From IMG/VR virus record IMGVR_UViG_2698536476_000007: a stretch of 26,878 nt of DNA. The stretch is one strand, 5' to 3'. The translations under genes and the position numbers were made by a program. This document shows, piece by piece, positions 2,494 to 26,878 of this stretch (its first letter is position 1; every line of letters starts with the position of its first letter). Source of the stretch: a virus. Lineage: Duplodnaviria; Heunggongvirae; Uroviricota; Caudoviricetes. The notes below the pieces were generated by a model that did no database searches, had not been told where the DNA came from, and saw nothing but the letters and a program-made list of their open reading frames with translations.

Positions 2494-2850
2494 ATGCGTG
2501 ATATGTATGAAGTAATGGATCGTTGGGGAGCTTGGGCTGCTTCAGACAATAGCGGAGTGGACTGGCAGCCGATAGCGGCTGGTTTCAAGGGACTTTTACC
2601 TCATGGCAAAAAGTCACGGATTCAGTGTGATGATGACGAAGGCATCATGATAGACAGTTGTGTGGCTCGGTTGAGAAGGTATAAACCAGAGGAATATGAG
2701 CTCATCATCGCCCACTTTGTTATCGGTATCTCATTACGCACTATTGCGAAGAAGAGAAAATGCTCTGATGGCACAATTAGGAAGGAACTGCAAACTGCAA
2801 TGGGGTTTGTTGACGGCTGTTTAGCAATGTTAGCTTATAGTATGGCATAA
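2494..2850 (+). CDS. Q: Late-gene antitermination protein Q (phage 82/21-type)
   Basis: 'VMDRWGAWAA...WQPIAAGFKGLLP...SRIQCDDDEG' matches the 82-type Q family (LERWGAWAA...IAAGFKGL...CCDDD). Sits immediately upstream of the lysis cassette. GGAG at 2483-2486 precedes ATG 2494. Confidence 0.75.
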   Translation: MRDMYEVMDRWGAWAASDNSGVDWQPIAAGFKGLLPHGKKSRIQCDDDEGIMIDSCVARLRRYKPEEYELIIAHFVIGISLRTIAKKRKCSDGTIRKELQTAMGFVDGCLAMLAYSMA

Positions 2851-8123: not shown

Positions 8124-8618
8124 ATGGCTGGAACGGCGGGGCGTTCCGGGCGTCGCCCCAAGCCAACGGCGCGCAAGGCGCTGGCCGGAAACCCCGGCAA
8201 GCGAGCCCTGAATAAAGATGAACCTGTTTTTACGCCCATCAAAGGTGTTGAGCCACCGGAGTGGTTCGCAGAAGAAAATCTCCCTCTCGCCACGATCATG
8301 TGGCAACTGACAACCAAAGAACTCTGCGGTCAGGGCCTGTTGTGCGTGACTGACCTCGCGGTGCTTGAGCGGTGGTGCGTGGCCTATGAGTTCTGGCGAC
8401 GTGCCGTGAAAAATATTGCCATACAGGGCAACACCATCACCGGTGCAATGGGCGGCAGGGTCAAAAATCCGGAGCTGACCGCCAAAAAAGAACAGGAGTC
8501 CGAGATGAGCAGCACGGGGGCAATGCTCGGACTCGACCCCAGCAGCCGCCAGCGTCTGATTGGCCTGGCGGGGCAGAAGAAAGCCACTAACCCGTTTCTG
8601 AAAATCATCGAGTCATGA
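8124..8618 (+). CDS. Terminase small subunit (P27 family-like)
   Basis: AGGAG RBS at 8111-8115 precedes ATG 8124; basic N-terminus and position immediately upstream of, and overlapping, the large terminase subunit. Confidence 0.8.
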
Positions 8619-10348: not shown

Positions 10349-10359
10349 CTGAGGTAATT

Positions 10360-10542
10360 ATGATCATGCTGATTCTCGCGCCTCTGGTGGGCGTGCTGGG
10401 GGCGCTTTTGCTGGCGTATGGTGCCTGGCTGATTTATCCCCCGGCGGGGTTTGTTGTTGCCGGGGCGTTGTGCCTGTTCTGGTCGTGGCTGGTAGCGCGA
10501 TATCTCGATCGTACACAGCTGTCTGTTGGTGGAGGTAAATAG
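10360..10542 (+). CDS. Small hypothetical membrane protein (two predicted TM helices)
   Basis: 60 aa, almost entirely hydrophobic ([26 protein letters not shown]...[13 protein letters not shown]); wedged between terminase and portal. Confidence 0.4.
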
Positions 10543-11783
10543 TGTTCTTTTCGGGATTATTTCAACGAAAAAGTGACGCACCGGTGACCACGCCAGCAGA
10601 GCTGGCGGATGCCATCGGGTTGTCCTACGACACCTATACCGGAAAGCAGATCAGCAGTCAGCGGGCCATGCGACTGACGGCGGTTTTTTCCTGCGTCAGA
10701 GTGCTGGCAGAGTCGGTCGGGATGTTGCCCTGCAATCTGTATCACCTGAACGGCAGCCTGAAGCAGAGAGCCACCGGCGAACGTCTGCATAAACTGATCT
10801 CCACGCATCCCAATGGCTATATGACGCCGCAGGAGTTCTGGGAGCTGGTGGTCACCTGTCTGTGCCTGCGGGGAAACTTTTACGCCTACAAAGTGAAAGC
10901 ATTTGGCGAAGTGGCTGAACTGCTGCCCGTCGATCCCGGCTGTGTGGAACCGAAGCTTAACAGTAGCTGGGAGCCGATCTATCAGGTCACATTCCCGGAT
11001 GGCTCCACGGATGTACTGAGCCAGGAGGATATCTGGCATGTGCGCACGCTGACGCTGGACGGACTGGTGGGGCTGAATCCCATCGCCTATGCCCGCGAGG
11101 CAATATCGCTGGCGGCAGCGACCGAAGAGCACGGGGCCAGACTGTTCAGCAATGGCGCGGTGACGTCGGGTGTGTTGCGTACAGAGCAGACGCTGTCAGA
11201 TCAGGCTTATGAGCGCCTGAAGAAAGATTTTGAGGAGCGTCACACCGGGCTTGGCAATGCTCACCGCCCGATGATCCTTGAGATGGGGCTGGACTGGAAG
11301 TCGATGGCGCTGAACGCCGAGGACAGCCAGTTCCTGGAAACCCGCAAGTTTCAGCTTGAAGAAATCTGTCGTCTGTTCCGGGTGCCGTTGCACATGGTGC
11401 AGAACACCGATCGCGCCACCTTCAACAATATCGAAGAGCTGGGGCTGGGATTTATCAACTATTCACTGGTGCCGTATCTGACCCGCATCGAACAGCGGAT
11501 CAACACCGGACTGGTACGAAAAAGTAAGCAGGGCGTTTATTACGCCAAATTTAACGCCGGGGCGTTACTGCGCGGGGATATGAAGTCCCGTTTTGAAGCC
11601 TACGCCACCGGGATCAACTGGGGAATTTACTCTCCCAATGACTGCCGCGACCTGGAAGATATGAATCCGCGTCCCGGTGGTGATGTCTATCTCACACCGA
11701 TGAACATGACCACGAAACCCTCCGATGGCAGTAAAGCCGTTAAGCAGAAGGATAACGCCAATGCAGACGAAACAACGTCTTGA
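10542..11783 (+). CDS. Portal protein (HK97 family)
   Basis: 413 aa following the large terminase; GTG start with GGAGG RBS at 10530-10534; followed by protease and capsid. Confidence 0.85.
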   Translation: MFFSGLFQRKSDAPVTTPAELADAIGLSYDTYTGKQISSQRAMRLTAVFSCVRVLAESVGMLPCNLYHLNGSLKQRATGERLHKLISTHPNGYMTPQEFWELVVTCLCLRGNFYAYKVKAFGEVAELLPVDPGCVEPKLNSSWEPIYQVTFPDGSTDVLSQEDIWHVRTLTLDGLVGLNPIAYAREAISLAAATEEHGARLFSNGAVTSGVLRTEQTLSDQAYERLKKDFEERHTGLGNAHRPMILEMGLDWKSMALNAEDSQFLETRKFQLEEICRLFRVPLHMVQNTDRATFNNIEELGLGFINYSLVPYLTRIEQRINTGLVRKSKQGVYYAKFNAGALLRGDMKSRFEAYATGINWGIYSPNDCRDLEDMNPRPGGDVYLTPMNMTTKPSDGSKAVKQKDNANADETTS

Positions 11784-12411
11784 TGTACCGCTGAGTCTGA
11801 AATCTGTCAGTGACTCCGGTGAGTTTGAAGGGTATGGCTCCGTCTTTGGTGTAAAGGACAGCCACGATGATGTGGTGATGTCCGGGGCATTTGCTGCTTC
11901 CCTGCGGGCGTGGAGTGACAGAAAAGCGTTACCTGCGCTGCTCTGGCAGCACCGCATGGATGAACCCATCGGTGTTTACACCGAAATGAAGGAAGACGAT
12001 GTCGGGCTTTACGTCAGGGGACGGTTGCTTATTGATGATGATCCCCTCGCAAAACGCGCACATGCACACATGAAGGCCGGTTCGTTAACCGGCCTTTCTA
12101 TTGGGTACGTCCTGAAAGACTGGGAATACGACCGGAGCAAAGAAGCCTTTCTGCTGAAAGAAATCGACCTCTGGGAAGTCAGCCTGGTGACGTTCCCGTC
12201 TAACGACGAGGCGCGGATCAGCGACGTCAAGAACGCACTGGCCCGCGGGGAAATCCCCGAACAGAAAAAAATCGAAAGAGTCCTGCGTGATGTCGGACTC
12301 TCCCGTACCCAGGCCAAAGCATTCATGGCCGGGGGCTATGGCGCACTGTCCCTGCGCGACGCTGAGGATGTGGGCTCTGCACTGAATGCACTGAAAAATC
12401 TGAACTTCTAA
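11761..12411 (+). CDS. Prohead maturation protease (HK97 family)
   Basis: Position between portal and capsid, about 216 aa. AAGGA RBS precedes ATG 11761; the track's 11725 start lies deep inside the portal gene. Confidence 0.8.
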   Translation: MQTKQRLDVPLSLKSVSDSGEFEGYGSVFGVKDSHDDVVMSGAFAASLRAWSDRKALPALLWQHRMDEPIGVYTEMKEDDVGLYVRGRLLIDDDPLAKRAHAHMKAGSLTGLSIGYVLKDWEYDRSKEAFLLKEIDLWEVSLVTFPSNDEARISDVKNALARGEIPEQKKIERVLRDVGLSRTQAKAFMAGGYGALSLRDAEDVGSALNALKNLNF

Positions 12412-12425
12412 TCAGGAGAAATACG

Positions 12426-13631
12426 ATGGCGGTTGATATTAAAGATGTCGAACAGGTCGCGCAGGAGCTGCAGCAGAAGTTTGACGACTTCAAAGCAAAG
12501 AACGACAAGCGCGTGGATGCGATTGAGCAGGAAAAAGGCAAGCTTGCCGGGCAGGTGGAAACCCTGAACGGGAAACTCAGCGAGCTGGAAAATCTCAAAA
12601 GCGACCTTGAAAAAGAGCTGCTTGAGCTGAAACGTCCGGCAGGTGGTGCGCAAAATAAACTGGCCACCGAGCATAAAGAGGCGTTTGTGGGCTTCCTGCG
12701 TAAAGGCCGTGAAGACGGTCTGCGCGATCTGGAGCGTAAGGCATTGCAGGTGGGTACCGATGAAGACGGTGGCTACGCCGTGCCGGAAGAACTGGATCGC
12801 AACATTCTTAACCTGCTGAAAGATGAAGTGGTGATGCGTCAGGAAGCCACGGTGATCACCGTTGGCGGTTCCGACTACAAAAAACTGGTGAATCTGGGCG
12901 GTACGGCTTCCGGATGGGTGGGGGAAACGGATACGCGATCCCAGACTGCCACCTCCAGACTGGAGCTGATTGAACCTCTCATGGGGGAAATTTACGGCAA
13001 CCCGCAGGCTACCCAGAAAATGCTGGACGATGCCTTCTTCAACGTGGAGGCCTGGATCAACAGCGAGCTGGCAACCGAATTTGCCGAACAGGAAGAAATT
13101 GCCTTTACCTCAGGCGATGGCACCAAGAAGCCGAAAGGGTTCCTGGCGTATGAATCCACTGATGAAACCGACAAGGTCCGGGCGTTCGGCAAACTTCAGC
13201 ATATTGTATCCGGCGAAGCGACCGCGGTGACCGCAGACGCCATTATCAAACTGATTTACACGCTGCGTAAGGCACACCGCACTGGCGCGAAGTTCATGAT
13301 GAACAACAACAGCCTGTTTGCCATCCGTCTGCTGAAAGACACCGAGGGTAACTATCTGTGGCGTCCTGGGCTGGAACTGGGGCAGCCATCCTCTCTGGCG
13401 GGTTACGGTATCGCTGAAAACGAGCAGATGCCGGATATTGCCGCGGATGCGAAAGCCATTGCATTTGGTAACTTCAAACGGGGTTACACCATCGTTGACC
13501 GTATCGGTACCCGCATTCTTCGCGATCCGTACACCAATAAACCGTTTGTCGGTTTTTATACCACCAAGCGCACCGGCGGCATGCTGGTCGATTCGCAGGC
13601 CATCAAACTGCTGAAGATTGCAGCGGCGTAA
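12426..13631 (+). CDS. Major capsid protein (HK97 fold) with N-terminal coiled-coil delta/scaffold domain
   Basis: 401 aa; N-terminal 100 aa coiled-coil-like (QELQQKFDDFKAKNDKRVDAIEQEKGKLAG...); AGGAG RBS; follows the protease. Confidence 0.9.
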   Translation: MAVDIKDVEQVAQELQQKFDDFKAKNDKRVDAIEQEKGKLAGQVETLNGKLSELENLKSDLEKELLELKRPAGGAQNKLATEHKEAFVGFLRKGREDGLRDLERKALQVGTDEDGGYAVPEELDRNILNLLKDEVVMRQEATVITVGGSDYKKLVNLGGTASGWVGETDTRSQTATSRLELIEPLMGEIYGNPQATQKMLDDAFFNVEAWINSELATEFAEQEEIAFTSGDGTKKPKGFLAYESTDETDKVRAFGKLQHIVSGEATAVTADAIIKLIYTLRKAHRTGAKFMMNNNSLFAIRLLKDTEGNYLWRPGLELGQPSSLAGYGIAENEQMPDIAADAKAIAFGNFKRGYTIVDRIGTRILRDPYTNKPFVGFYTTKRTGGMLVDSQAIKLLKIAAA

Positions 13632-13636
13632 TCACT

Positions 13637-13660
13637 CAGGGGCGCGGAACCGCGCCCCCT
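13637..13660 (+). terminator. GC-rich hairpin after the capsid gene (likely attenuating or partial terminator)
   Basis: GGGGCGCG-gaac-CGCGCCCC perfect 8-bp stem followed by CTGTTCTG (weak U tract). Confidence 0.35.
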
Positions 13661-13680
13661 GTTCTGACGGGTGAAGAATC

Positions 13681-13881
13681 ATGATCCTGAAACAAGATCT
13701 GAAATGGTCACCGGACGGTATGCGTGTTGAGGTCATTCGGGCCGGTGAGTATGACGACGGGGCGCTTCCTGCCCGGGTGCAGGAGATTGCACTTCAGGCC
13801 GGGTTAGCAGAGCGCGGAACCAGTGCAAAAAGCAGTAAAGCGACAAAAGAGAAAAAAGCCACGACCAGTAAAGAGGGCTGA
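13681..13881 (+). CDS. Hypothetical small protein (head module)
   Basis: 66-aa ORF co-directional and tightly packed between the capsid and connector genes; lysine-rich C-terminus. Confidence 0.4.
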   Translation: MILKQDLKWSPDGMRVEVIRAGEYDDGALPARVQEIALQAGLAERGTSAKSSKATKEKKATTSKEG

Positions 13882-13883
13882 GT

Positions 13884-14207
13884 ATGCTTCTGACAATGGA
13901 AGAGATTAAAGCCCAACTCCGGCTGGATGAGGATTTCGATGCTGATGACCGCCATCTGCAACTGCTGGCCTGTGCGGCGCAAAAGCGGACGGAAACGTAT
14001 CTGAACCGGAAGCTCTATGCTCCGGATGAAACCATTCCGGACAGCGATCCGGACGGGCTGCACCTGCCGGATGATATTCGTCTGGGGATGCTGATGCTTA
14101 TCAGCCATTTTTACGAAAATCGCTCGTCGGTTACAGACGTTGAGAAAATGGAGTTGCCAATGAGCTTTAACTGGCTTGTCGGCCCGTACAGGTATTTCCC
14201 GCAATGA
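13884..14207 (+). CDS. Head-tail connector protein (gp6-like)
   Basis: 107 aa; position and size; N-terminus 'LTMEEIKAQLRLDEDFDADD' typical of gp6-like connectors; GAGGG RBS. Confidence 0.7.
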   Translation: MLLTMEEIKAQLRLDEDFDADDRHLQLLACAAQKRTETYLNRKLYAPDETIPDSDPDGLHLPDDIRLGMLMLISHFYENRSSVTDVEKMELPMSFNWLVGPYRYFPQ

Positions 14208-14614
14208 AAATTCGTCAGGCGCAGACCAGCGCAACCTACATTCTGCCGGACCCCGGTGAACTGAATAAACGCGTCCTGATCCGCCAGCGGGTGGATATGC
14301 CCGCGGATAACTTTGGCGTGGAGCCTCAATACCCGGTTACGTTCCGGACATGGGCGAAGGTTATCCAGACCAGTGCCACCACCTGGCAGGAAACCGCGCA
14401 GACCGGGGACGCCATCACCCATTACATCACCATTCGTTACCGCCGGGGGATCACCGCTGATTATGAGGTGGTCTGCGGTGACAGTGTGTACCGGGTGAAA
14501 CGTCAGCGCGATCTGAACGGGGCGCGGCGCTTTCTGCTGCTGGAGTGTACGGAGCTGGGCGAATGTAGGCAGAGTCACGGAGGCAACAATGACGACTTCC
14601 TTTTTGCACGTTGA
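14204..14614 (+). CDS. Head closure / head-tail adaptor protein
   Basis: 136 aa; ATGA overlap with the previous gene; position in the head-completion cluster. Confidence 0.6.
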   Translation: MKIRQAQTSATYILPDPGELNKRVLIRQRVDMPADNFGVEPQYPVTFRTWAKVIQTSATTWQETAQTGDAITHYITIRYRRGITADYEVVCGDSVYRVKRQRDLNGARRFLLLECTELGECRQSHGGNNDDFLFAR

Positions 14615-15095
14615 TTTTCAGCAGCCCGCGGAGATGCGCTTTAACCGCGCCCGTGTCCGGCGGGCGTTTGTCACGATTGGTCAGCGTCATATGCGTGATG
14701 CCCGTCGGCTGGTGATGCGCCGTGCACGGTCGGCACCGGGTGAAAACCCCGGTTATCAGACCGGACGCCAGGCTCGTTCAATTGGTTACATGGTACCCAG
14801 AGCCAGTAAACATCGCCCTGGTTTTATGGCACGTATAGCCCCTAACCAGCGTAATGGAGAGGGAAACCGCCGTATCACCGGTGATTTTTATCCGGCTTTT
14901 TTGTTCTATGGCGTGAGGCGAGGGGCAAAGCGTCGTCGCGGCCATCATCGTGGTGCATCCGGTGGCAGCGGCTGGCGACTGGCTCCACGTAATAACTTCA
15001 TGGTGGAAACTCTTGAAAAGAACCGCAGCTGGACACGCTATTTTCTGGCGCGGGAATTGCGTAAATCACTGAAGCCGGAGCGACGACACAGATGA
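14589..15095 (+). CDS. HK97 gp10-like virion morphogenesis / tail completion protein
   Basis: 168 aa, very basic; GGAGG RBS at 14578-14582; position between head closure and tail genes. Confidence 0.55.
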   Translation: MTTSFLHVDFQQPAEMRFNRARVRRAFVTIGQRHMRDARRLVMRRARSAPGENPGYQTGRQARSIGYMVPRASKHRPGFMARIAPNQRNGEGNRRITGDFYPAFLFYGVRRGAKRRRGHHRGASGGSGWRLAPRNNFMVETLEKNRSWTRYFLARELRKSLKPERRHR

Positions 15096-15652
15096 AACTG
15101 ACGCCTGTTATTGCTGCACTGCGTGCCCGTTGTCCGTATTTTGAAAACCGGGTTGCAGGCGCGGCCCAGTTCAAAAATCTGCCGGAGGTCGGAAAGCTGA
15201 AACTCCCGGCGGCATATGTTGTACCGGGTGATGATTCTCCGGGAGAAAACAAAAGCCAGACCGACTACTGGCAGGAGCTGAAAGAGGGTTTCTCCGTGGT
15301 TGTCATACTGAGTAACGGGCGTGATGAGCGCGGTCAGTTTGCCTCGTATGATGTGGTGGACGATGTCCGGCAGATGCTCTTTAAGGCTCTGCTGGGCTGG
15401 AACCCGGAGGCGTGCGGTAACCCGATTACCTATGACGGCGGCACGCTGCTGGATCTGAATCGTCATGAGCTGATTTATCAGTTCGATTTTTCGGTCATCA
15501 GCGAGCTGACTGAAGACGATACCCGCCAGCAGGATGATCTGAACAGTCTGGATGAACTGCAAACGCTGGCGATTGATGTTGATTATCTCGAGCCCGGTAA
15601 CGGGCCTGACGGCGATATCGAACATCACACCGAAATAACCCTTCCTTCCTGA
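15092..15652 (+). CDS. Putative tail terminator / neck protein
   Basis: 186 aa; ATGA overlap with the previous gene; position immediately upstream of the sheath cluster. Confidence 0.5.
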   Translation: MKLTPVIAALRARCPYFENRVAGAAQFKNLPEVGKLKLPAAYVVPGDDSPGENKSQTDYWQELKEGFSVVVILSNGRDERGQFASYDVVDDVRQMLFKALLGWNPEACGNPITYDGGTLLDLNRHELIYQFDFSVISELTEDDTRQQDDLNSLDELQTLAIDVDYLEPGNGPDGDIEHHTEITLPS

Positions 15653-15660
15653 GGATCCTC

Positions 15661-15831
15661 ATGTTTGTCAAACCTGTTAAAGGGCGGTCAGTGCCTGACC
15701 CTGCCCGCGGCGACCTTTTGCCCGCCGAAGGGCGAAATGTTGACGAGAACAACTACTGGCTGCGCCGTGAAGCAGCGGGTGATATCCGGCGCGTGAATAA
15801 AAAGGTGAACACCGATGACGATAAGCTTTAA
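15661..15831 (+). CDS. Small protein upstream of the sheath (DUF2635-like; below the ORF-track size cutoff)
   Basis: ATG 15661 to TAA 15829-15831, translating MFVKPVKGRSVPDPARGDLLPAEGRNVDENNYWLRREAAGDIRRVNKKVNTDDDKL; overlaps the sheath start; conserved position in Mu-like tail clusters. Confidence 0.45.
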   Translation: MFVKPVKGRSVPDPARGDLLPAEGRNVDENNYWLRREAAGDIRRVNKKVNTDDDKL

Positions 15832-17311
15832 CACCATTCCGTCGAATACGCTGGTTCCGATTTTTTATGCGGAAATGGATAACCAGGCGGCGAATACTGC
15901 ACAGGACAGCGGAGCATCGCTGCTGATTGGTCATGCCAATAACGGTGCAGAGATTGTTGCCAACAGTCTGGTGCTGATGCCATCGGCAGACTATGCACGC
16001 CAGATTTGTGGTGCGGGAAGTCAGCTGGCGCGTATGGTCGAGGCTTATCGCCAGACCGACCCGTTTGGTGAACTGTATGTGATTGCCGTTCCTGAATCCA
16101 CGGGCGCGGCGGCAACAGTTACGCTGACGGTGACCGGCGCGGCAACCGAAACCGGCACGGTGAATGTTTATGTGGGACGTACCCGCGTGCAGGCACCGGT
16201 GACCAACGGCGATAACGTCGCGACGATTGCCAGCAGTATCCAGGATGCCATCAATGCCGTTCCGACCCTGCCGTTTACTGCCTCATCTTCGGCAGGCGTG
16301 GTCACACTGACCGCGCGTCATAAGGGGCTTTGCGGGAATGAAATTCCTGTCAGCCTCAATTACTACGGCTTTGGTGGGGGCGAAGTGCTGCCAGCGGGCG
16401 TACAGATTGCCGTGGCGACGGGTACCGCCGGAACGGGCGCTCCTGTTCTCACCGGCGCGGTGGCTGCAATGGCGGATGAGCCGTTTGATTATATCGGCCT
16501 GCCGTTCAACGACACAGCCTCCGTTAACACGCTGGTGACCGAGATGAACGATACCAGCGGTCGCTGGAGCTATGCGCGTCAGCTGTATGGTCATGTGTAT
16601 ACGGCAAAGATCGGCACGCTGTCAGAACTGGTGACCGCAGGTGACCAGTTTAACCAGCAGCACATTACCCTGGCGGGATACGAAAAAGAGACCCAGACGC
16701 CTGCCGACGAGCTGGCGGCAAGCCGTACCGCCCGCGCAGCGGTGTTTATTCGCAACGATCCGGCACGTCCCACGCAGACCGGTGAGCTGGTGGGTATGCT
16801 GCCTGCGCCGAAGGGGAAACGGTTCACGATGACCGAACAACAGACCCTGCTGTCTCATGGCGTGGCAACGGCGTATGTCGAAAGCGGGGTACTGCGCATT
16901 CAGCGTGATGTCACCACGTACAGGAAAAACGCTTACGGGGTTGCGGATAACAGCTACCTCGACAGTGAGACACTGCATACCAGCGCGTATGTACTGCGCA
17001 AACTGAAATCCGTCATTACCAGTAAGTACGGGCGTCACAAGCTTGCCAGTGACGGTACCCGCTTTGGTCCCGGTCAGGCGATTGTCACCCCGGCGGTGAT
17101 CAAAGGGGAACTGCTGGCAACCTACCGTCAGCTTGAGCGTGCGGGGATCGTGGAAAACTACGAACTGTTTAAGCAGTACCTGGTTGTGGAGCGTGATGCC
17201 AGCGATCCGAACCGCCTGAACACGCTGTTCCCGCCTGACTATGTTAACCAGTTGCGTGTCTTTGCCGTGGTTAACCAGTTCCGTCTTCAGTATTCAGAGG
17301 AGTCTGCATAA
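15815..17311 (+). CDS. Tail sheath protein (Mu gpL-like)
   Basis: 498 aa (Mu L is about 495 aa), followed by a 118-aa tube gene; N-terminus 'FNTIPSNTLVPIFYAEMDN' sheath-like. Confidence 0.85.
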   Translation: MTISFNTIPSNTLVPIFYAEMDNQAANTAQDSGASLLIGHANNGAEIVANSLVLMPSADYARQICGAGSQLARMVEAYRQTDPFGELYVIAVPESTGAAATVTLTVTGAATETGTVNVYVGRTRVQAPVTNGDNVATIASSIQDAINAVPTLPFTASSSAGVVTLTARHKGLCGNEIPVSLNYYGFGGGEVLPAGVQIAVATGTAGTGAPVLTGAVAAMADEPFDYIGLPFNDTASVNTLVTEMNDTSGRWSYARQLYGHVYTAKIGTLSELVTAGDQFNQQHITLAGYEKETQTPADELAASRTARAAVFIRNDPARPTQTGELVGMLPAPKGKRFTMTEQQTLLSHGVATAYVESGVLRIQRDVTTYRKNAYGVADNSYLDSETLHTSAYVLRKLKSVITSKYGRHKLASDGTRFGPGQAIVTPAVIKGELLATYRQLERAGIVENYELFKQYLVVERDASDPNRLNTLFPPDYVNQLRVFAVVNQFRLQYSEESA

Positions 17312-17667
17312 TGGCCCGTATCGGGGGAACCTGTTATTTCAAAATTGACGGTCAGCAGCTATCGCTGACCGGCGGCATTGAGGTGCCCATGAACAGGACG
17401 GTCAATGATGACATCATCGGCCTGGACGGTTCAGTGGACCGCAAGGAAACTCACCGTGCGCCTTATGTCAAAGGGACCTTCAAGGTGCCGAAGAATTTTC
17501 CGGTGAGCAAAATCACCTCGTCTGATGAGATGACCATCACTGCCGAGCTGGCAAACGGTCAGGTCTATGTACTGTCGTCTGCCTGGCTGCACGGCGAAGC
17601 GAACCATAATGCCGAAGAAGGCACGGTCGATCTTGAGTTCCACGGTGAAGAAGGGGATTACCAGTAA
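17311..17667 (+). CDS. Tail tube protein (Mu gpM-like)
   Basis: 118 aa immediately after the sheath with a 1-nt TAATG overlap. Confidence 0.8.
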   Translation: MARIGGTCYFKIDGQQLSLTGGIEVPMNRTVNDDIIGLDGSVDRKETHRAPYVKGTFKVPKNFPVSKITSSDEMTITAELANGQVYVLSSAWLHGEANHNAEEGTVDLEFHGEEGDYQ

Positions 17668-17936
17668 TGAAAGAGCTTGAGTTAAAGAAACCGATTACCG
17701 CTCATGGCGAGACACTCTCCGTACTGGAGTTTGATGAGCCCACCGGGAAAGATGTCCGCGAGCTGGGATATCCCTACCAGATGAATCAGGATGAGTCCGT
17801 CAGACTTCTGGCGCATGTGGTATCGAAATACATCGTGCGGCTGGCGAAAGTGCCGCAAAGCTCTGTCGACCAGATGTCTCCGGCAGACCTGAATGCAGCG
17901 GCGTGGCTTGTGGCCGGTTTTTTCCTCCAGGCCTGA
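17667..17936 (+). CDS. Tail assembly chaperone (short form)
   Basis: 89 aa directly upstream of the tape measure; contains the slippery heptamer T_TTT_TTC at 17918-17924 near its 3' end. Confidence 0.7.
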   Translation: MKELELKKPITAHGETLSVLEFDEPTGKDVRELGYPYQMNQDESVRLLAHVVSKYIVRLAKVPQSSVDQMSPADLNAAAWLVAGFFLQA

Positions 17937-18085
17937 CGGCTGAATACCTCACTGATCGCTTCTTTGACTGCGCCAGTTACTGGCGCATTAATCCCTTCGA
18001 ATTGCTGAATATGCCGATCAGTGAAATTCCCTTGCTGGTCAGTCAGGCAAACAGGATAGAGCAGGAGAAACGCACACATGGCTGA
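17903..18085 (+). CDS. -1 frame extension of the tail assembly chaperone (made as a fusion by programmed frameshifting; fusion spans 17667-18085)
   Basis: The -1 frame is open from the slippery site to 18085; its translation FFPPGLTAEY... continues directly from the zero-frame GFF; it overlaps the tape measure start (18078). Confidence 0.55.
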   Translation: MACGRFFPPGLTAEYLTDRFFDCASYWRINPFELLNMPISEIPLLVSQANRIEQEKRTHG

Positions 18086-19913
18086 ATTTGAGCTTAAGGC
18101 GTTGATCACCGGTGTCGACAGGCTTTCTCCCGCGCTGTCGAAAATGCAAAAGAAAATCCGGGGATTTAAACGCCAGGCGGAAGAAGCGTCACAGGGTGGG
18201 CTGGCGCTTGGTGGCGGACTGGCAGCGGGTCTGACGCTTTCCCTGAAATCTTATGCCGATCAGGAAAACGCCGCCACCGGGCTGAAAGTCGCCATGATGG
18301 ATGCGAACGGCGAGGTTGGAAAGAGCTTTCAGGACATCAATAAACTGGCTATTGGCCTGGGTAACCAGCTACCCGGTACAACGGCTGATTTCCAGAACAT
18401 GATGCAGATGCTGGTGCGTCAGGGGATCCCGGCAGAAAACATTCTTGGTGGTGTGGGTAAAGCGACAGCTTATCTTGCGGTACAACTGAAAAAAACACCG
18501 GAAGCGGCTGCTGAGTTTGCTGCAAAGATGCAGGATGCTACCGGAACGGCGTCAGAAGACATGATGGGGCTGTTCGACACTATCCAGAAGGCGTTTTATC
18601 TGGGCGTTGATGATACCAACATGTTGTCCTTCTTCACTAAAACCAGTTCTGTTCTGAAAATGGTGAATAAGGACGGTCTTCAGGCTGCACAGAGTCTTGC
18701 CCCCATCAGTGTCATGATGGATCAGATGGGGATGAACGGGGAGTCGGCAGGTAATGCCCTGCGAAAAGTTATCCAGTCCGGATTAAGTGTTAAGAAAATC
18801 AGGGACGTCAATAAAATCATGGCCCGCCAGAAACTCGGGGTACAGCTCGATTTTACTGATGGCAAAGGGAGTTTTGGCGGTCTTGATAACATGTTCAGGC
18901 AACTGGCAAAGCTGCGAAAACTGACCGACGTTAAGCGAACCGGTGTACTTAAGGCAATATTTGGTGATGATGCCGAAACCCTTCAGGTGGTCAATGCGCT
19001 GATCGATAAAGGAAAGGATGGCTACGATCAGATCCAGCAGAAGATGAATAAACAGGCCAGCCTGAATAAACGTGTTCAGGCTCAGCTTGGTACGCTGTCC
19101 AACCTGTGGGAGGCAATGACGGGGACCGCAACTAACGGCCTTGCGGCTATTGGCGGCGCATTTTCTGGTGACGCTAAAAATATCACGCAATGGCTGGGGG
19201 AGTTAGGGGAAAAATTCACGAAGTTTGCGGATGAAAATCCCCGGGTTATTCGCGGCGTCGTCGGGCTTGCTGCCGGTCTTGCGATTCTGAAACTGGGATT
19301 GATGGGCGTTGGCGGTGCCATCAGTATTGTCAGCAGGATCATGTCGATGACGCCGATTGGCATGATTGCGACGGCGATAGCCCTCGCTGCGGGATTAATT
19401 ATCACTAACTGGGATGTTGTCGGACCTTATTTTAAGAAACTCTGGGAAACCATTGGTCCTTATTTTGAGACTGGCTGGGAACTTCTTAAGAAGGTTTTTG
19501 CCTGGTCGCCGCTGGGGATGGTGATCAATAACTGGGGACCGGTTGTTAAGTGGTTTCAGGATATGTGGGACAAGCTGAAGCCAATTATTGAGTGGTTTAC
19601 CGACAGTTCCGGTGACACGGTCGATGCCATTAACTCTGCGCAGTGGGGCGCGGGTGCTTATGATGCTTATGGGACGGGAATACCGGCGCGGGGATACACA
19701 CCTTATCCGGCGGTAGATCCGGCTCAGTCAAACAACGCCTCCGATGCCACAGGCCTGAATCCCTTCATGATTAACAAAGCTTCTGCGCCAAAAGTTGATG
19801 GTGAGATCAAGGTCTCTTTTGTGAATTCGCCTCCGGGTATGCGGGTTATGGAAACGCGATCCAGCGGTTTTGATGTCAGCCATGATGTTGGCTATACGCG
19901 CTTTGGCAGGTAA
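18078..19913 (+). CDS. Tail tape measure protein
   Basis: 611 aa, Ala/Gly-rich with hydrophobic stretches, directly after the chaperone frameshift pair. Confidence 0.85.
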   Translation: MAEFELKALITGVDRLSPALSKMQKKIRGFKRQAEEASQGGLALGGGLAAGLTLSLKSYADQENAATGLKVAMMDANGEVGKSFQDINKLAIGLGNQLPGTTADFQNMMQMLVRQGIPAENILGGVGKATAYLAVQLKKTPEAAAEFAAKMQDATGTASEDMMGLFDTIQKAFYLGVDDTNMLSFFTKTSSVLKMVNKDGLQAAQSLAPISVMMDQMGMNGESAGNALRKVIQSGLSVKKIRDVNKIMARQKLGVQLDFTDGKGSFGGLDNMFRQLAKLRKLTDVKRTGVLKAIFGDDAETLQVVNALIDKGKDGYDQIQQKMNKQASLNKRVQAQLGTLSNLWEAMTGTATNGLAAIGGAFSGDAKNITQWLGELGEKFTKFADENPRVIRGVVGLAAGLAILKLGLMGVGGAISIVSRIMSMTPIGMIATAIALAAGLIITNWDVVGPYFKKLWETIGPYFETGWELLKKVFAWSPLGMVINNWGPVVKWFQDMWDKLKPIIEWFTDSSGDTVDAINSAQWGAGAYDAYGTGIPARGYTPYPAVDPAQSNNASDATGLNPFMINKASAPKVDGEIKVSFVNSPPGMRVMETRSSGFDVSHDVGYTRFGR

Positions 19914-19935
19914 TGAAAAATTAATCTGTTAATGA

Positions 19936-19960
19936 GTCCCACTCCGGTGGGATTTTTTAT
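19936..19960 (+). terminator. Intrinsic terminator between the tape measure and gene N
   Basis: TCCCAC-tccg-GTGGGA perfect stem followed by TTTTTTAT. Confidence 0.45.
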
Positions 19961-19973
19961 GTACGGAGTTTAT

Positions 19974-21302
19974 ATGACGTGGAAAGACAGACTTCAGGAC
20001 GCGTCATTTCGCGGTGTGCCGTTTAAGGTTGAAGAAGAAAGTGCGGGAACCGGTCGTCGTGTGGAAACACACGAATACCCGAACCGCGACAAACCCTATA
20101 CCGAAGACCTGGGGAAAATCACTTTCCGCCCGTCCATCACGGCTTATGTGGTGGGAGATGACTGCTTTGACCAGCGCGATCGCCTGATTGACGCGCTGAA
20201 TAAACCCGGTCCCGGCACGCTTGTCCATCCGACTTACGGTGAGCTGAAAGTCTGTGTTGACGGAGAGGTTCGGGTCAGCACATCGAAGAGTGAAGGGCGT
20301 ATTGTCCGCTTTGACCTGAAGTTTGTCGAAGCGGGAGAACTCTCTTACCCCACATCAGGTGCGGCGACGGCGCAGACGCTGATGTCATCCTGTTCTGCAC
20401 TGGATGACTGCATCAGTGACAGTTTCAGTAGTTTCAGTATCGATGGCGTGGCAGATTTTGTGCAGAACGACGTCGTCGGTAATGCCAGCACAATGCTTGG
20501 GTATGTTTCTGATGCGATGAAAGTGGTGGATTCTGCCGTATCGGATGCCGCCAGGCTGTTGCAGGGGGATATCTCGGTACTTCTGCCGCCGCCATCGTCA
20601 GGCAAAAATTTCGTTGAGCAGGTGCAGAAAATGTGGCGTACCGGGAAACGCCTTTATGGTAACGCCAGCGACCTGGTCACCATGATCAAAACGCTTTCCG
20701 GTGTCAGCCTCGGCAGCGATCTGCAACCGCGCGGCGTCTGGAAAACGGACAGTAAAACCACCGCCACGGCTACGCAGCAGCGTAACGTGGTTGCCAGCAC
20801 CCTTCGTACGACCGCAATCAGCGAAGCGGCGTATGCCGTCACCCGATTGCCTGCGCCAACAACTTCCGCGGTGATGCAGAATGCCGCAGTGGGGCAGGCA
20901 ACAACACCTGCGCAGAGCACTGGCTGGCCTTCCGTCACGCATCCGGCACTGAACAATGCACCGGCGGTGAAAAACACAGTTGACCTGCCGACGTGGGAAG
21001 AACTGACTGACATTCGCGACACACTGAATACGGCAATTGATAAGGAGTTGTCCCGTACAACCAGTGATGCGCTGTTTCTGGCGCTGCGCCGGGTGAAAGC
21101 AGATCTGAATGCGGATATCAACACGCGCCTTGAACAGTCTGCACGGATCATTCAGCGCACGCCGGATGAGGTTTTACCCGCGCTGGTGCTGGCGGCGACC
21201 TGGTTTGATAACGCGGCGCGTGACGCGGACATTATCCGGCGTAATGCCATTACGCATCCCGGCTTTGTGCCGGTGATCCCTCTGAAGGTGCCAGTGCAAT
21301 GA
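19974..21302 (+). CDS. DNA circularization protein (Mu gpN-like)
   Basis: N-terminus MTWKDRLQDASFRGVPFKVEEESAGTGRRVETHEYPNRDKPYTEDLG is the conserved Mu N-family N-terminus; GGAG RBS at 19963-19966. The track's 19932 start lies inside the terminator hairpin. Confidence 0.8.
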   Translation: MTWKDRLQDASFRGVPFKVEEESAGTGRRVETHEYPNRDKPYTEDLGKITFRPSITAYVVGDDCFDQRDRLIDALNKPGPGTLVHPTYGELKVCVDGEVRVSTSKSEGRIVRFDLKFVEAGELSYPTSGAATAQTLMSSCSALDDCISDSFSSFSIDGVADFVQNDVVGNASTMLGYVSDAMKVVDSAVSDAARLLQGDISVLLPPPSSGKNFVEQVQKMWRTGKRLYGNASDLVTMIKTLSGVSLGSDLQPRGVWKTDSKTTATATQQRNVVASTLRTTAISEAAYAVTRLPAPTTSAVMQNAAVGQATTPAQSTGWPSVTHPALNNAPAVKNTVDLPTWEELTDIRDTLNTAIDKELSRTTSDALFLALRRVKADLNADINTRLEQSARIIQRTPDEVLPALVLAATWFDNAARDADIIRRNAITHPGFVPVIPLKVPVQ

Positions 21303-22378
21303 ACGATAACGTCACGCTACGGGTAAATGGCCGGGAGTGGAATGGCTGGACATCGGTGCGCATCGGTGCCGGTATTGAACGGCTGGCGCGGGATTTCAGT
21401 GTGGAGATCACTCGCCAGTGGCCGGGAGATGAGGGTATCACCACGCTTCAGCCGCGCATTAAAAACGGTTCAAAAGTGGAAGTGCTGATTGGTGATGAGC
21501 TGGTGATCACCGGCTGGGTGGAGGCGACGCCCGTTCGGTACGATGCCCGTTCGGTCAGCACCGGTATTGCCGGACGTAGTCTGACGGCTGACCTGATTGA
21601 CTGTGCAGCCGAACCGACACAGTTTAACGGACGCTCGCTGGTGCAGATTGCGCAGGCGCTTGCTGCGCCTTTCGGTATTGAGGTGGTGAACAGCGGTGCG
21701 CCGTCGGGTGTTATTCCTGATGTTCAGCCTGATCACGGTGAAACGGTGATCGAGGTAATCAACAAAATACTCGGTCAGCAGCAGGCGCTGGCTTATGACG
21801 ACCCGCACGGCAGGCTGGTGATTGGCGGTATTGGCTCAACGCGGGCACATACCGCGCTGGTACTCGGGGAAAACATCCTTTCCTGCGATACGGAGAAGAG
21901 TATCCGGGAGCGGTTTTCTGTTTACCAGGTGGCGGGGCAGCGTGCCGGAAACGACGATGATTTCGGTGAGGCCACCACAACTGCGCTGCGGGCCCGCACA
22001 GAGGACGCATTTATTGCCCGTTACCGTCCGATGTATATCAGGCAGACAGGGCAGGCTACGGGGGCAGGCTGTATTGCGCGTGCTGACTTTGAAGCCCGAC
22101 AACGGGCGGCGCGGACGGATGAAACCACCTATGTGGTGCAGGGCTGGCGACAGGGTAACGGTACGCTGTGGCAGCCCAACCAGCGGGTGATTGTCTTCGA
22201 TCCGGTCTGTGGTTTCGACAATACCGAACTGCTTGTCTCGGAAGTCACGTTTACTCAGGACCAGAATGGCACCCTGACGGAAATCCGTGTCGGCCCACCT
22301 GATGCTTATCTGCCTGAACCCGAAGCCCCCGGCGCGCGGAAAAAGAAAAAAGCCAGAGTACAGGAGGACCCGTTCTGA
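21299..22378 (+). CDS. Tail/baseplate hub protein (Mu gpP-like)
   Basis: 359 aa; ATGA overlap with N; position between N and the baseplate V-like gene as in Mu. Confidence 0.7.
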   Translation: MNDNVTLRVNGREWNGWTSVRIGAGIERLARDFSVEITRQWPGDEGITTLQPRIKNGSKVEVLIGDELVITGWVEATPVRYDARSVSTGIAGRSLTADLIDCAAEPTQFNGRSLVQIAQALAAPFGIEVVNSGAPSGVIPDVQPDHGETVIEVINKILGQQQALAYDDPHGRLVIGGIGSTRAHTALVLGENILSCDTEKSIRERFSVYQVAGQRAGNDDDFGEATTTALRARTEDAFIARYRPMYIRQTGQATGAGCIARADFEARQRAARTDETTYVVQGWRQGNGTLWQPNQRVIVFDPVCGFDNTELLVSEVTFTQDQNGTLTEIRVGPPDAYLPEPEAPGARKKKKARVQEDPF

Positions 22379-22926
22379 TGAAGGCGATTGAAGCCATGCA
22401 GCGACAACTCCTCGGCCTGATTGGGCGGGCGGTGGTGAAAAGCATCAGTGCCGCCACGAAATGTCAGACCGTGGATGTGTCCCTGATTGCCGGTGAACCC
22501 AAAGCCGGGGTTGAACATCTTGAACCCTACGGTTTTACCGCAAGGGCAAACAGCGGTGCGGAAGCGGTGGTGTTGTTTCCGGATGGTGACCGTTCTCATG
22601 CGGTGGTTGTTACGGTGTCGGACCGGCGCTACCGCCTGAAAGGGCTGCAGACGGGTGAGGTGGCTGTCTATGACGATCAGGGGCAGTCCGTGACGCTGAC
22701 CCGGGAGGGGATCGTGGTGGACGGTGCAGGTAAAACGATCACGTTTCGCAATTCACCTAAAGCACGTTTTGAAATGGACCTGGAAGTGACAGGACAGGTG
22801 AAAGACCTGTGCGACTCCAGCGGCACCACCATGTCAGCGATGCGGCTTGCCTATAACGGGCATCGTCACAGAGAGAACGGTCAGGGCAGTAACACCGACA
22901 AACCTGATAAATCGATGGAGGCATGA
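22378..22926 (+). CDS. Baseplate assembly protein V-like (spike; Mu gp45-like)
   Basis: 182 aa; beta-rich central region and position; TGATG overlap with the previous gene. Confidence 0.65.
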   Translation: MKAIEAMQRQLLGLIGRAVVKSISAATKCQTVDVSLIAGEPKAGVEHLEPYGFTARANSGAEAVVLFPDGDRSHAVVVTVSDRRYRLKGLQTGEVAVYDDQGQSVTLTREGIVVDGAGKTITFRNSPKARFEMDLEVTGQVKDLCDSSGTTMSAMRLAYNGHRHRENGQGSNTDKPDKSMEA

Positions 22927-23351
22927 TGGAACTGTGGCTGACGGTGAACGGTAAACGCACCTGCGCCAGCGCACCGCTGGATCCGCTGACCCGCGCCGTG
23001 GTGATTTCCCTGTTTACCTGGCGGCGGGCGGAGCCTGATGACAACGCCGACGTCCCGATGGGATGGTGGGGGGATACCTGGCCTGCGGTACAGAATGACC
23101 GTTACGGCTCCCGACTGTGGCTGCTTCAGCGCAGCAAACTGACCAATCAGCTGGTGCTGACGGTAAGGGGGTATATCCGCGAATGCCTGCAATGGATGAT
23201 TGATGACGGCGTGGTGTCCCGTATTGATCTGGATATCCACCGCACCGGGATTAATGAACTGGGTAACAGTATCACTCTCTGGCGTCGTGACGGACCGGTA
23301 ATGATTTCTTTTGATGATCTGTGGAGTGCGATAACGCATGGCGGACAGTGA
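22923..23351 (+). CDS. Baseplate protein (Mu gp46-like, lysozyme-fold/GPW-like)
   Basis: 142 aa; position between the V-like and J-like genes. Confidence 0.6.
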   Translation: MMELWLTVNGKRTCASAPLDPLTRAVVISLFTWRRAEPDDNADVPMGWWGDTWPAVQNDRYGSRLWLLQRSKLTNQLVLTVRGYIRECLQWMIDDGVVSRIDLDIHRTGINELGNSITLWRRDGPVMISFDDLWSAITHGGQ

Positions 23352-24396
23352 ATTTCAGCGCCCGACGCTGGCAGAAAATATCAGTATGCTCCGTAACGAT
23401 TTATTCGCCAGGCTGGACGTCAGCGACACGCTCCGGCGCATGGATGAAGACGTGCGGGCAAAGGTGTATGCGGCGGCGCTGCATACGGTTTACGGGTACA
23501 TCGATTATCTGGCAATGAACATGCTGCCTGACCTGTGCGATGAGTCCTGGCTGGCGCGACATGCTGCGATGAAACGGTGTCCGCGCAAGGGGGCCACGGC
23601 TGCCAGCGGGTATATGCGCTGGGAAGGTGTCAGCGATGGCCTGAAGGTGACCGCCGGGAGTGTTATTCAGCGCGATGACCTGGTTCAGTACACGGCAACT
23701 GCCGATGCAACCAGCTCCGGTGGTGTCCTGCGCGTGCCGATCGCCTGCTCAAGTGCAGGCGCGGTCGGTAACGCTGACGACGGTACGTCATTAATCCTGG
23801 TCACGCCGGTTAATGGTCTGCCGTCTTCCGGCGTGGCAGATACCCTGACAGGTGGATTTGATACTGAAGAGCTGGAAACGTGGCGTGCCCGCGTCATTGA
23901 GCGGTATTACTGGACGCCTCAGGGCGGGGCTGACGGGGACTATGTCGTCTGGGCTAAAGAAGTGCCCGGCATTACCCGCGCATGGACATACCGTCACTGG
24001 ATGGGAACGGGAACTGTCGGTGTGATGATTGCCAGCAGTGACCTGATTAATCCCATTCCGGAAGAATCAACGGAAACGGCAGCAAGACAACATATCGGGC
24101 CACTGGCCCCGGTGGCAGGCTCTGATTTGTATGTATTCAGGCCGGTGGCACATACGGTGGATTTTCATATCCGCGTGACGCCGGACACACCGGAAATACG
24201 GGCTGCCATTACCGCGGAGTTGCGTTCGTTCCTGCTGCGTGATGGTTATCCGCAGGGAGAACTGAAGGTATCGCGTATCAGTGAGGCGATTTCCGGTGCG
24301 AACGGGGAATACAGCCATCAGTTGCTTGCACCGGTGGACAATATCTCCATTGCGAAAAACGAACTGGCGGTACTGGGGACGATTTCATGGACGTGA
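23338..24396 (+). CDS. Baseplate J-like protein (Mu gp47-like)
   Basis: 352 aa; size and position in the Mu-like baseplate gene order. Confidence 0.75.
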
Positions 24397-24971
24397 CAAA
24401 CGATGATTACATCCGCCTGTTATCGGCACTGTTGCCGCCCGGTCCGGCGTGGTCAGCCAGCGATCCGGCGATTGCCGGTGCGGCACCGTCATTAACCCGT
24501 GTTCATCAGCGTGCGGATGCCCTGATGCGGGAGCTGGATCCGCGCACCACCACTGAACTGATAAACCGCTGGGAGCGTCTGTGCGGTCTGCCGGATGAAT
24601 GTATTCCGGCGGGAACGCAGACCCTTCGCCAGCGTCAGCAACGGCTGGATGCGAAGGTTAACCTGGCGGGCGGCATCAACGAGGATTTTTATCTTGCACA
24701 GCTTGCTGCCCTGGGCAGACCAGATGCCACCATCACGCGATACGACAAAAGCACGTTCACCTGCTCATCGGCCTGTACTGACGCGGTGAATGCGCCGGAA
24801 TGGCGGTATTACTGGCAGGTCAACATGCCAACCACCACCAACACCACCTGGATGACATGTGGCGATCCCTGTGATTCCGCACTGCGTATCTGGGGTGACA
24901 CCGTTGTCGAGTGTGTGCTTAACAAACTCTGCCCGTCGCATACCTACGTAATTTTTAAATATCCGGAGTAA
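24387..24971 (+). CDS. Tail protein (Mu gp48 / YmfQ-like, DUF2313)
   Basis: 194 aa; N-terminus '[16 protein letters not shown]' typical of YmfQ-like proteins that precede tail-fibre genes in e14/Mu-like clusters. Confidence 0.65.
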
Positions 24972-24974
24972 TCC

Positions 24975-25760
24975 ATGCATCGTATAGACACGAAAACCGC
25001 GCAGAAGGATAAGTTCGGCGCGGGTAAGAACGGTTTTACCCGTGGTAACCCCCAGACTGGCACGCCTGCCACCGATCTGGATGATGACTACTTTGATATG
25101 TTGCAGGAAGAACTCTGCAGCGTGGTGGAGGCATCCGGTGCCAGCCTGGAGAAGGCGCGGCACGACCAGTTGCTTACCGCGCTTCGTGCGCTGCTGTTAA
25201 GCCGCAAGAATCCGTTTGGCGATATCAAATCGGATGGCACGGTGAAAACGGCTCTCGAAAACCTTGGTTTGGGAGAAGGCTCTGCATTACCTGTTGGTGT
25301 GCCTGTTCCATGGCCTTCAGCCACACCGCCAACAGGCTGGCTGAAATGCAACGGTGCGGCATTTTCTGCTGAAGAATACCCGGAACTGGCAAAGGCTTAC
25401 CCGACCAATAAATTGCCTGATTTACGTGGTGAGTTTATTCGTGGCTGGGATGATGAACGTGGTGTGGATAGTGGGCGAACTCTGCTTTCAGCGCAAGGAG
25501 ATGCTATTCGAAACATTACTGGCGGTTTTGGTCAGTTGCGCGTAAACAGCGAAATTAATGCAATTGTCGATGTTCAAAGTGTGAGTGGGGCTTTTTACGG
25601 AGGTACCTCAGTCCGGAATAACATCAATGTATCTATGACATACGCTAATGACCGAAAAATCCGACAAGATGTTCACTTCTCGGCGGCAAATGTTGTTCCA
25701 ACAGCAAATGAAAATCGTCCACGTAACATCGCCTTTAATTATATTGTGAGGGCCGCATGA
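24975..25760 (+). CDS. Tail fibre protein (constant N-terminal part plus variable C-terminal part with tail-collar-like motif)
   Basis: 261 aa; C-terminal '[22 protein letters not shown]...[19 protein letters not shown]' is the phage tail-collar motif; followed by a Tfa gene with ATGA overlap; contains a hix-like site at 25252-25277. Confidence 0.75.
25252..25277. other. Candidate site-specific inversion crossover site (hix/gix/cix-like 26-bp dyad: CTCTCGAAAACC-TT-GGTTTGGGAGAA)
   Basis: Matches the Hin/Gin/Cin/Pin site architecture (12-bp half-sites with AAACC/GGTTT flanking a 2-bp core) and lies inside the tail-fibre gene at the expected constant/variable junction. Confidence 0.5.
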
Positions 25761-26362
25761 TGAATAAAGCTGTATTGAATAGCGAACTCATTGCCATAAA
25801 AGCGGGAGACATTATCATTTATAATTATGATGGTGAAACGCGGGAATATATTTCTACATCAACTGAATATCTCGCTGTCGGCGTCGGTATCCCGGCATGT
25901 TCCTGTTTGGATGCACCAGGTACACATAAAGCTGGTTATGCAATCTGTCGCTCTGTAGATTTAAATTCATGGGAATATGTGCCAGACCATCGCGGTGAAG
26001 TTGTCTATAGTACCGAAACGGGAGATACCAAAGAAATCACAGTTCCGGGTGATTACCCGGAAAATACAACCACTATAGCCCCATTAACGCCATACGATAA
26101 ATGGGATGGTGAGAAATGGGTGACCGATACTGAGGCACAGCATAGCGCCGCAGTAGACGCGGCAGAAGCACAGCGTCAGTCACTGATTGATACTGCAATG
26201 GCTTCCATTAGTCTGATTCAACTGAAATTGCAGGCCGGGCGGAAGCTGATGCAGACAGAAAACACCCGACTTAACGCTGTGCTGGATTACATTGACGCGG
26301 TGACGGCAACAGATACCAGCACCGCGCCGGACGTCATCTGGCCTGAACTGCCGGAGGCGTAG
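25757..26362 (+). CDS. Tail fibre assembly protein (Tfa)
   Basis: 201 aa; conserved Tfa C-terminus '...[24 protein letters not shown]'; ATGA overlap with the tail-fibre gene. Confidence 0.8.
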
Positions 26363-26753
26363 GCCATTCAATATCTGGCGCACCGGAAGTATCGACCAGT
26401 TCCAGTGCGTCCAGATAATCCAGCCACAAATTATATTGCGCCAGTTCCTCACCTTTCAGGCGACCAATCGCCGCTTTACCTGGCCATTGTCTGCTGTTCA
26501 TGTGCTCGTTGGCTTCATTAATAAGTTTTCTTTTTTTCAAATCCGCCAATGCAATAAGGTTTTCTTTTGATAAAGGTGGTTGCTCTGTCAAAACCGGATA
26601 TCCCTCCTGATTGCTGACTATTTTCATGCCATTATCCTGACCATCCAGTAGTAACAGCCATTCATCCGTGGTTATCTCAACAGCATCTGAAGGTGCTTTA
26701 TTTAAATCGGTAAAAAAACCATTTTCTTTTTGTGAATAGAAGTATCTATCCAT
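26334..26753 (-). CDS. Tail fibre assembly protein, alternative copy (Tfa') on the opposite strand
   Basis: 139 aa; shares the conserved C-terminal Tfa motif '[26 protein letters not shown]' with the + strand Tfa; convergent with 3' ends overlapping, as in invertible tail-fibre segments (Mu G, P1 C, e14 P). Confidence 0.8.
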   Translation of the reverse strand: MDRYFYSQKENGFFTDLNKAPSDAVEITTDEWLLLLDGQDNGMKIVSNQEGYPVLTEQPPLSKENLIALADLKKRKLINEANEHMNSRQWPGKAAIGRLKGEELAQYNLWLDYLDALELVDTSGAPDIEWPTPPAVQAR

Positions 26754-26878
26754 TTATTAATCTCCAAAAGCAATGAACCGCCCCGGTTTTCCTGGAGAGT
26801 GTTTTATCTGTGAACTCAGGCTGCCAGATCATCGTTTCTGATGGAAGCATAATAAGCTTTTTCTGCTTCTGCCGGAGG
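26747..26878 (-). CDS. 3' end of an alternative tail-fibre variable segment (Sv'), truncated by the window edge
   Basis: The - strand frame is open from the window edge to TAG at 26747-26749, ending 8 nt into the Tfa' start; orientation and position match the alternative fibre exon of an invertible segment. Translation not independently recognised. Confidence 0.35.

Follow-up and report, generated by a model that had tools for sequence, protein, structure and literature searches.

A crossover site of the e14 P-segment type in an EHEC-type prophage, very probably orphaned by an IS629 deletion of its partner and of pinE

Invertible fibre segments of e14, Mu and P1

DNA invertases of the Hin/Gin class are serine recombinases that make a 2-bp staggered cut and rotate the DNA through 180°, in a reaction that involves a Fis-bound enhancer. 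The e14 P-segment switch, which is reportedly to be credited to Plasterk and van de Putte (1985) and whose crossover sites we take to be those named pixL and pixR, was already known in the 1980s, with further experimental work in 2014 and 2025; the locus described here is a decayed remnant of it. Both orientations of the e14 segment coexist in clonal K-12 cultures, as seen by read mapping and PCR (PMC4272514). Inversion of the 1,797-bp segment was mapped to the repeats TTGGTTTGGGAGAAGG and CCTTCTCCCAAACCAA, and PinE, PinQ and PinR all invert it, the latter two being encoded in other cryptic K-12 prophages; the K-12 protein 'StfE2' is reported to block adsorption of T2 (PMC12529663). The gene order of the K-12 segment (stfP/ycfK, tfaP, tfaE, stfE, pinE) is that of the intact relatives of our locus, and its inverted partner site, TTCTCCCAAACCAACGTTTATGAAAA, lies just upstream of pinE (L004 5606–5631, L004 being the K-12 e14 region). 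In the K-12 annotation of e14 the segment stands the other way round, with StfP as the joined tip.

The G segment of Mu shares the architecture of this locus, with a constant fibre part (Sc), a crossover site, a variable part (Sv) and U, then U' and Sv' on the opposite strand, a second site, and then the invertase. It differs in scale, the Mu fibre having 504 aa with the site about 170 codons in, and the G segment spanning about 3 kb rather than the roughly 1.85 kb found here. The C segment of P1 (with Cin and cixL/cixR, and to which the Min system of p15B is related) is larger still at 4.2 kb in a fibre gene of about 988 codons, and its invertase lies on the other side relative to the direction of the fibre gene.

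The locus that we analysed lies in a 26,878-nucleotide stretch of virus DNA (IMG/VR record IMGVR_UViG_2698536476_000007), which we call the window. The window represents the late and morphogenesis region of an e14-like, full-length prophage, with ymfL, a Q antiterminator, lysis, terminase, ymfR, portal, capsid, sheath, tube, baseplate and ymfQ genes; the baseplate genes upstream of the fibre gene are Mu-like (homologues of gp44–48). The constant part of the fibre, ymfQ and the baseplate J remnant of K-12 e14 are homologous to the window at 98% identity, but K-12 e14 is without 12.66 kb of head and tail genes that the window contains. Window positions 9212–10947 and 23609–25279 are adjacent in K-12 (L004 2136/2137), and positions 10948–23608, from mid-portal to mid-baseplate-J, are missing there. 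This prophage type, shown undeleted in the window, has given rise to K-12 e14 by a clean deletion, and the loss of these 12.66 kb accounts for the beeE and jayE fragments. The window also carries two opposite-strand cargo genes (2830–4044 and 4047–5222, both on the minus strand), located between the Q antiterminator and the holin, which is where Stx phages have their stx genes. In the PGAP annotation the products are a hypothetical protein (404 aa) and a 'nucleoid-associated protein' (391 aa), and neither gene matched any defence model in a PADLOC scan.

The crossover site and the fibre genes around it

The site occupies positions 25252–25277 on the plus strand and its 26 bp can be read directly as CTCTCGAAAACCTTGGTTTGGGAGAA, consisting of a left half, CTCTCGAAAACC, a TT core at 25264–25265, and a right half, GGTTTGGGAGAA; taken as an inverted repeat around the core, the two 12-bp halves agree at 9 of 12 positions. 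It lies within a 261-aa tail-fibre gene (24975–25760, plus strand; from the list of open reading frames, and annotated by PGAP as 'phage tail protein'), covering codons 93–101 with the core in codon 97. An earlier reading made from the sequence only had described just such a 26-bp dyad with AAACC/GGTTT arms and a 2-bp core about 95 codons into this gene, and both the dyad and its placement hold. It had also proposed that constant and variable parts meet here, and this too is borne out: collinear homology of the window to K-12 stfP stops at 25279, and homology to the fibre modules of other phages starts at about 25253–25264, at the site. The constant part therefore runs from 24975 to about 25265 and the joined variable part from about 25266 to 25760, both on the plus strand. 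Since homology to many phages (P2-like, Klebsiella and Salmonella phages) begins within 25253–25264, the site also marks a boundary of horizontal module exchange.

A palindrome in a coding sequence could be a coincidence with no history of recombination, and the bare motif AAACCNNGGTTT does not speak against this, as the window holds 2 matches with at most 1 mismatch where 1.1 are expected, which is not above chance. That motif is too short for significance alone, and we used the full 26-bp consensus TTNTCNNAAACCNNGGTTTNNGANAA in its place. Scanned with up to 3 mismatches, the consensus gives a single match in the window (with 1 mismatch) against 0.01 expected. The site is moreover identical at 26 of 26 positions to the experimentally used site in K-12 e14 stfP (ycfK; L004 3779–3804), and the 16-mer TTGGTTTGGGAGAAGG, one of the two repeats to which e14 inversion was mapped, is found at window 25264–25279, overlapping the site. 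Together with a natural inversion whose breakpoints fall exactly at the site (see below), the consensus scan and the e14 identity refute a chance dyad, to which we assign virtually no probability. The dyad is the fibre-proximal crossover site of the Pin/Gin/Cin class at the Sc/Sv junction, of the e14 P-segment type.

Reading in each case from the constant part into the segment, the partner site of e14 and of the intact relative CH4790 (TTTTCATAAACG TT GGTTTGGGAGAA) matches the window site at 21 of 26 positions, cixL of P1 (CAATCCTAAACC TT GGTTTAAGAGAA; curated P1 record) at 20 of 26, and gix of Mu (TTATCCAAAACC TC GGTTTACAGGAA; curated Mu record) at 18 of 26. The P1 site has the same TT core as the window site, whereas the core of the Mu site is TC; the features common to the Mu and window sites are those of AAACC-NN-GGTTT. 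A further relative of the site is present in the stf gene of HK97, where a lone pix-like site, CTCGCACAAACC-TT-GGTTTGGGAGAA (in full CTCGCACAAACCTTGGTTTGGGAGAA, at L008 2501–2526, corresponding to about 19702–19727 of NC_002167.1), stands where the shared variable module and hence the homology to the window variable part begins, with neither a partner nor an invertase. The HK97 site is degenerate (2 consensus mismatches) and belongs to a siphovirus stf with a single tfa, whereas the window site is intact and a second tfa is present. Orphan sites are therefore a known kind of fossil at module junctions, as illustrated by this lone degenerate site without an invertase.

The variable part joined in the window contains a Collar domain (Pfam PF07484, residues 108–155 of the 261-aa fibre), and the arrangement of constant part, collar tip and TfaE gives an intact 261-aa fibre reading frame. 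Two convergent tail-fibre assembly (Tfa) genes follow, as the earlier reading had recognised, and both encode Caudo_TAP proteins. The first, a 201-aa chaperone of tfaE type (25757–26362, plus strand; Pfam Caudo_TAP, E = 3.2e-30; tfaE according to PGAP), serves the joined variable part. The second, of 139 aa (26334–26753, minus strand; Caudo_TAP, E = 3.4e-25), is the chaperone of the alternative variable part and lies in the orientation that is not expressed; in strain ACN002, where the segment is flipped, it comes after the fused fibre gene. The joined tip is a mosaic relative to K-12 stfE, with the first 195 bp or so after the site 94.9% identical before the sequences diverge; the following stretch of about 260 bp (25454–25715) has no blastn match to K-12 stfE, after which identity to K-12 is 87.7% over the last part of the fibre gene and tfaE.

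Intact relatives and natural inversion of the segment

The E. coli strain CH4790 (locus L002) is 98.2% identical to the window and carries the full cassette, in the order ymfQ, fibre gene (constant part, site, and variable part with the collar domain), tfaE, the convergent 139-aa Tfa gene, and then Sv', a 132-aa minus-strand reading frame with a Gp53-like C-terminal domain. The partner site follows at 8206–8231 of L002, with pinE 55 bp further on, and the distance from core to core is 1,853 bp. The partner site is identical in K-12 and CH4790, and it is present in all of the intact relatives L002, L003, L004, L010 and L012. The encoded PinE has Resolvase (PF00239) and HTH_7 (PF02796) domains, and its residues 1–182 align end to end with the Mu Gin structure 3uj3 (E = 4.5e-93). 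A stretch at the 5' end of pinE is identical to the annotated P1 Cin enhancer, which lies inside the 5' end of cin, at 57 of 72 positions and is a candidate counterpart of it; this stretch is absent from the window and from the corresponding region of E. coli O103:H2 PV16-126 (L001), having been lost together with pinE. The layout that had been proposed by analogy with the Mu G, P1 C and e14 P segments thus exists in these relatives, which carry the partner site and pinE as predicted.

Comparison of CH4790 with ACN002 (L003) reveals the segment in both orientations. The two strains share one prophage, its DNA 99.8–99.9% identical and its flanking protein accessions the same, but in ACN002 the segment between the sites is flipped, so that ymfQ is followed by a 216-aa fibre combining the constant part with Sv' (a Gp53-like tip), and then by the 139-aa Tfa gene. 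The breakpoints of the flip lie within a shared 20 bp around the core, and either way round the reading frame continues, as ...E N L G L G E... or as ...I N V G L G E... A survey of 5,426 complete E. coli genomes places the window-type tip directly after the constant part in 561 of them and the alternative tip there in 644. From the L002/L003 flip and these counts we conclude that the site belongs to a real, naturally flipping host-range switch. Both orientations are observed for the prophage type (L002 versus L003, and 561 versus 644 genomes) and not for the genome of the window; of the earlier proposal of an invertible host-range segment, the part that concerns the prophage type stands on the strength of this flip, and the part that would have the switch active in this genome does not.

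In the intact relatives, a Pin serine invertase would pair the fibre-proximal site with the inverted partner adjoining pinE, cut both at the central TT and rotate the segment of about 1.85 kb. The constant 97 N-terminal codons would then be fused in frame either to the collar-domain tip, served by TfaE, or to the Gp53-like tip with its own Tfa, and the flip may in this way switch receptor specificity. Between the relatives' alternative tip and the StfP tip of K-12, identity is only about 35%.

An IS629-type element at the window edge and the probable loss of the switch

The collinearity of the window with the intact relatives ends at 26774, which corresponds to L002 7875. What is left of Sv' is an 18-nt relic on the minus strand (26757–26774) comprising its last five codons (IAFGD) and the stop, collinear with CH4790, where the end of the Sv' reading frame, ...WIAFGD*, matches it. 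The remainder of the window (26775–26878, minus strand) is the end of an IS629-type element of the IS3 family, with its terminal inverted repeat, (T)GAACCGCCCCGG..., and the last 20 transposase codons. The element begins at 26774/26775, and five codons separate this boundary from the end of the second fibre reading frame. The minus-strand reading frame at the edge had been taken for the end of a second fibre-like gene; it is instead the C-terminus of the IS629-type transposase, as positions 26816–26878 encode the last 20 residues of an IS3-family transposase (translation PPAEAEKAYYASIRNDDLAA), whose C-terminus reads ...AEKAYYASIRNDDLAA. PGAP annotates an IS3-family transposase here as a frameshifted CDS, and the transposase has Pfam matches to rve/HTH_21. 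The element is about 1,310 bp long with ends TGAACCGCCCCGG... and ...CCGGGGCGGTTCA, and is 99.6% identical to an element annotated as IS629 by its depositors; in length, inverted repeats, programmed frameshift and rve domain it is of the IS629 type.

The sequence beyond the window edge can be followed in near-identical assemblies. Window positions 15900–26878, including the IS junction, are 100% identical to PV16-126, the nearest of the complete genomes, and there are 3 mismatches in the left 16 kb, so that the window comes from a near-identical genome, not provably PV16-126 itself. In PV16-126 the element is flanked by the equivalents of L002 7875 and L002 10719, and the 2,843 bp between these are missing, namely nearly all of Sv', the partner site, pinE, two small reading frames, and the 3' end of a gene for a TrlF-family AAA-like ATPase. 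The ATPase gene is cut from 917 aa to 739 aa, although it is still annotated as a CDS (L001 12182–14401), and it is followed by another IS copy (L001 14426–15734); both features lie beyond the window. The same order of IS, truncated ATPase gene and IS is found in L011 (GCA_000936125.1), where a 96-bp tandem repeat of the IS end at the junction (L011 7801–8001) is probably an assembly artefact at the repeat. Two further assemblies encoding the exact fibre protein, L013 and L014, share the exact junction, and both end inside the element. This fibre protein is mostly found on contigs of 20–50 kb (295 of 354 index blocks), several of which stop in the IS as the window does; the window, too, is probably a contig of a draft assembly, broken at the repeated IS629.

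A simple insertion of an IS629-type element, with its TG...CA terminal inverted repeats and two-ORF transposase, is marked by a target duplication of 3–4 bp. A CTT(T) duplication of the normal kind flanks the second copy, on the far side of the ATPase gene, whereas the copy at the window edge has a junction without one (GCAA / IS / CTGA, as seen in PV16-126), which fits an adjacent deletion. IS629 commonly causes adjacent deletions in EHEC genomes. Like such deletions in EHEC prophages, this one is abutted by the element on a flank that lacks a target duplication, and its only particular point is the removal of an invertase switch. A deletion by homologous recombination between the two IS copies flanking the ATPase gene is unlikely, because the copies lie in inverted orientation, share 94.8% identity, and enclose DNA that remains collinear with the intact relative.

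The sequence-only reading had expected the partner site and an invertase gene beyond position 26878, and one explanation is accordingly that the segment still inverts, with the partner and a pin/gin-like invertase just past the edge, perhaps in a version where the IS has simply inserted into Sv'. In all intact relatives the partner and pinE do lie no more than about 1.1 kb from where collinearity with the window stops, and the prophage of L012, with 1 mismatch in 7,800 bp, is intact. After a simple insertion the rest of the cassette would lie 1.3 kb further on in the true source. However, the window edge is an IS629 end abutting the fifth codon from the end of Sv', and in PV16-126 and L011, the two assemblies in which the sequence past this junction is resolved, the element is followed by the truncated TrlF gene, with no target duplication and no partner site or Resolvase gene within 9 kb. 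No second consensus site was found in the window, in the 9 kb rightward in PV16-126, or in L005, and no serine invertase (Resolvase plus HTH_7) is annotated in the window equivalent or the 9 kb rightward of it in PV16-126; L011 likewise has no invertase gene. The absence of both from the 9 kb to the right is the outcome that the sequence-only reading had itself named as refuting an active switch. Nor would the alternative fibre tip survive a simple insertion, and we regard an active switch as improbable.

Our preferred interpretation is that an IS629-type element with an adjacent deletion of 2.84 kb has removed almost all of Sv', the partner site, pinE, the two small reading frames and the 3' end of the TrlF gene, freezing the segment in the collar/TfaE orientation and leaving the remaining site as coding sequence only. 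This deletion most probably extends to the window's own genome, judging from the near-identical assemblies, the window itself ending inside the IS. With no partner site, the segment at 25266–26774 cannot invert, no matter which invertases are present in the cell, and the prophage is locked into a fibre with the collar tip and TfaE, so that a single orientation is predicted for the source strain; the second, 139-aa Tfa gene is a stranded gene. K-12 retains pinE and the partner site, both of which are replaced by IS629 in the window. Since L012 retains both with only 1 mismatch in 7.8 kb, the loss is recent and lineage-specific. We therefore consider it very probable that this is an orphaned e14-type site, its partner and pinE deleted by IS629 and the switch locked, in an EHEC-type e14-like myovirus prophage.

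A different possibility is that the orphan site is still live in trans, with the Pin invertases of other prophages pairing it with pix-like sites in other fibre genes; if so, large inversions between prophages or swapping of fibre tips between them could follow. PinQ and PinR of other cryptic K-12 prophages do invert the e14 segment (PMC12529663), the orphan site is itself intact, and related sites are present in the fibre genes of unrelated phages, including the P2-like pro483 and HK97. Against this, there is no partner site within the 38 kb examined, and a 200-bp query spanning the junction matched one place only in PV16-126, with no such rearrangement seen. Invertases of the Hin/Gin class need a specific synapse with a Fis-bound enhancer in cis on a supercoiled domain, and act poorly over long distances, which also counts against action in trans. 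We consider such recognition of the orphan site very unlikely, and think just as little of the related idea that the IS629 deletion was selected for one host range, with loss of the pinE-proximal chimeric reading frame. That reading frame is the positional counterpart of the anti-T2 protein 'StfE2' of K-12. We rejected an equation of the deleted 132-aa reading frame with 'StfE2' because the variable parts are only about 35% identical, and the two are counterparts at the level of position and domain only.

The locked switch adds little new biology, as the system is already known as the e14 P segment, and its interest in that respect is low. It does document how a host-range switch was lost very recently, in association with IS629, from an otherwise complete-looking prophage of an EHEC lineage. 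A perfect crossover site in a fibre gene is no proof of an active switch, as both HK97 and this prophage carry orphan sites, and host-range prediction for this prophage, together with the automatic annotation of phase-variable loci, should allow for a switch that has been lost.
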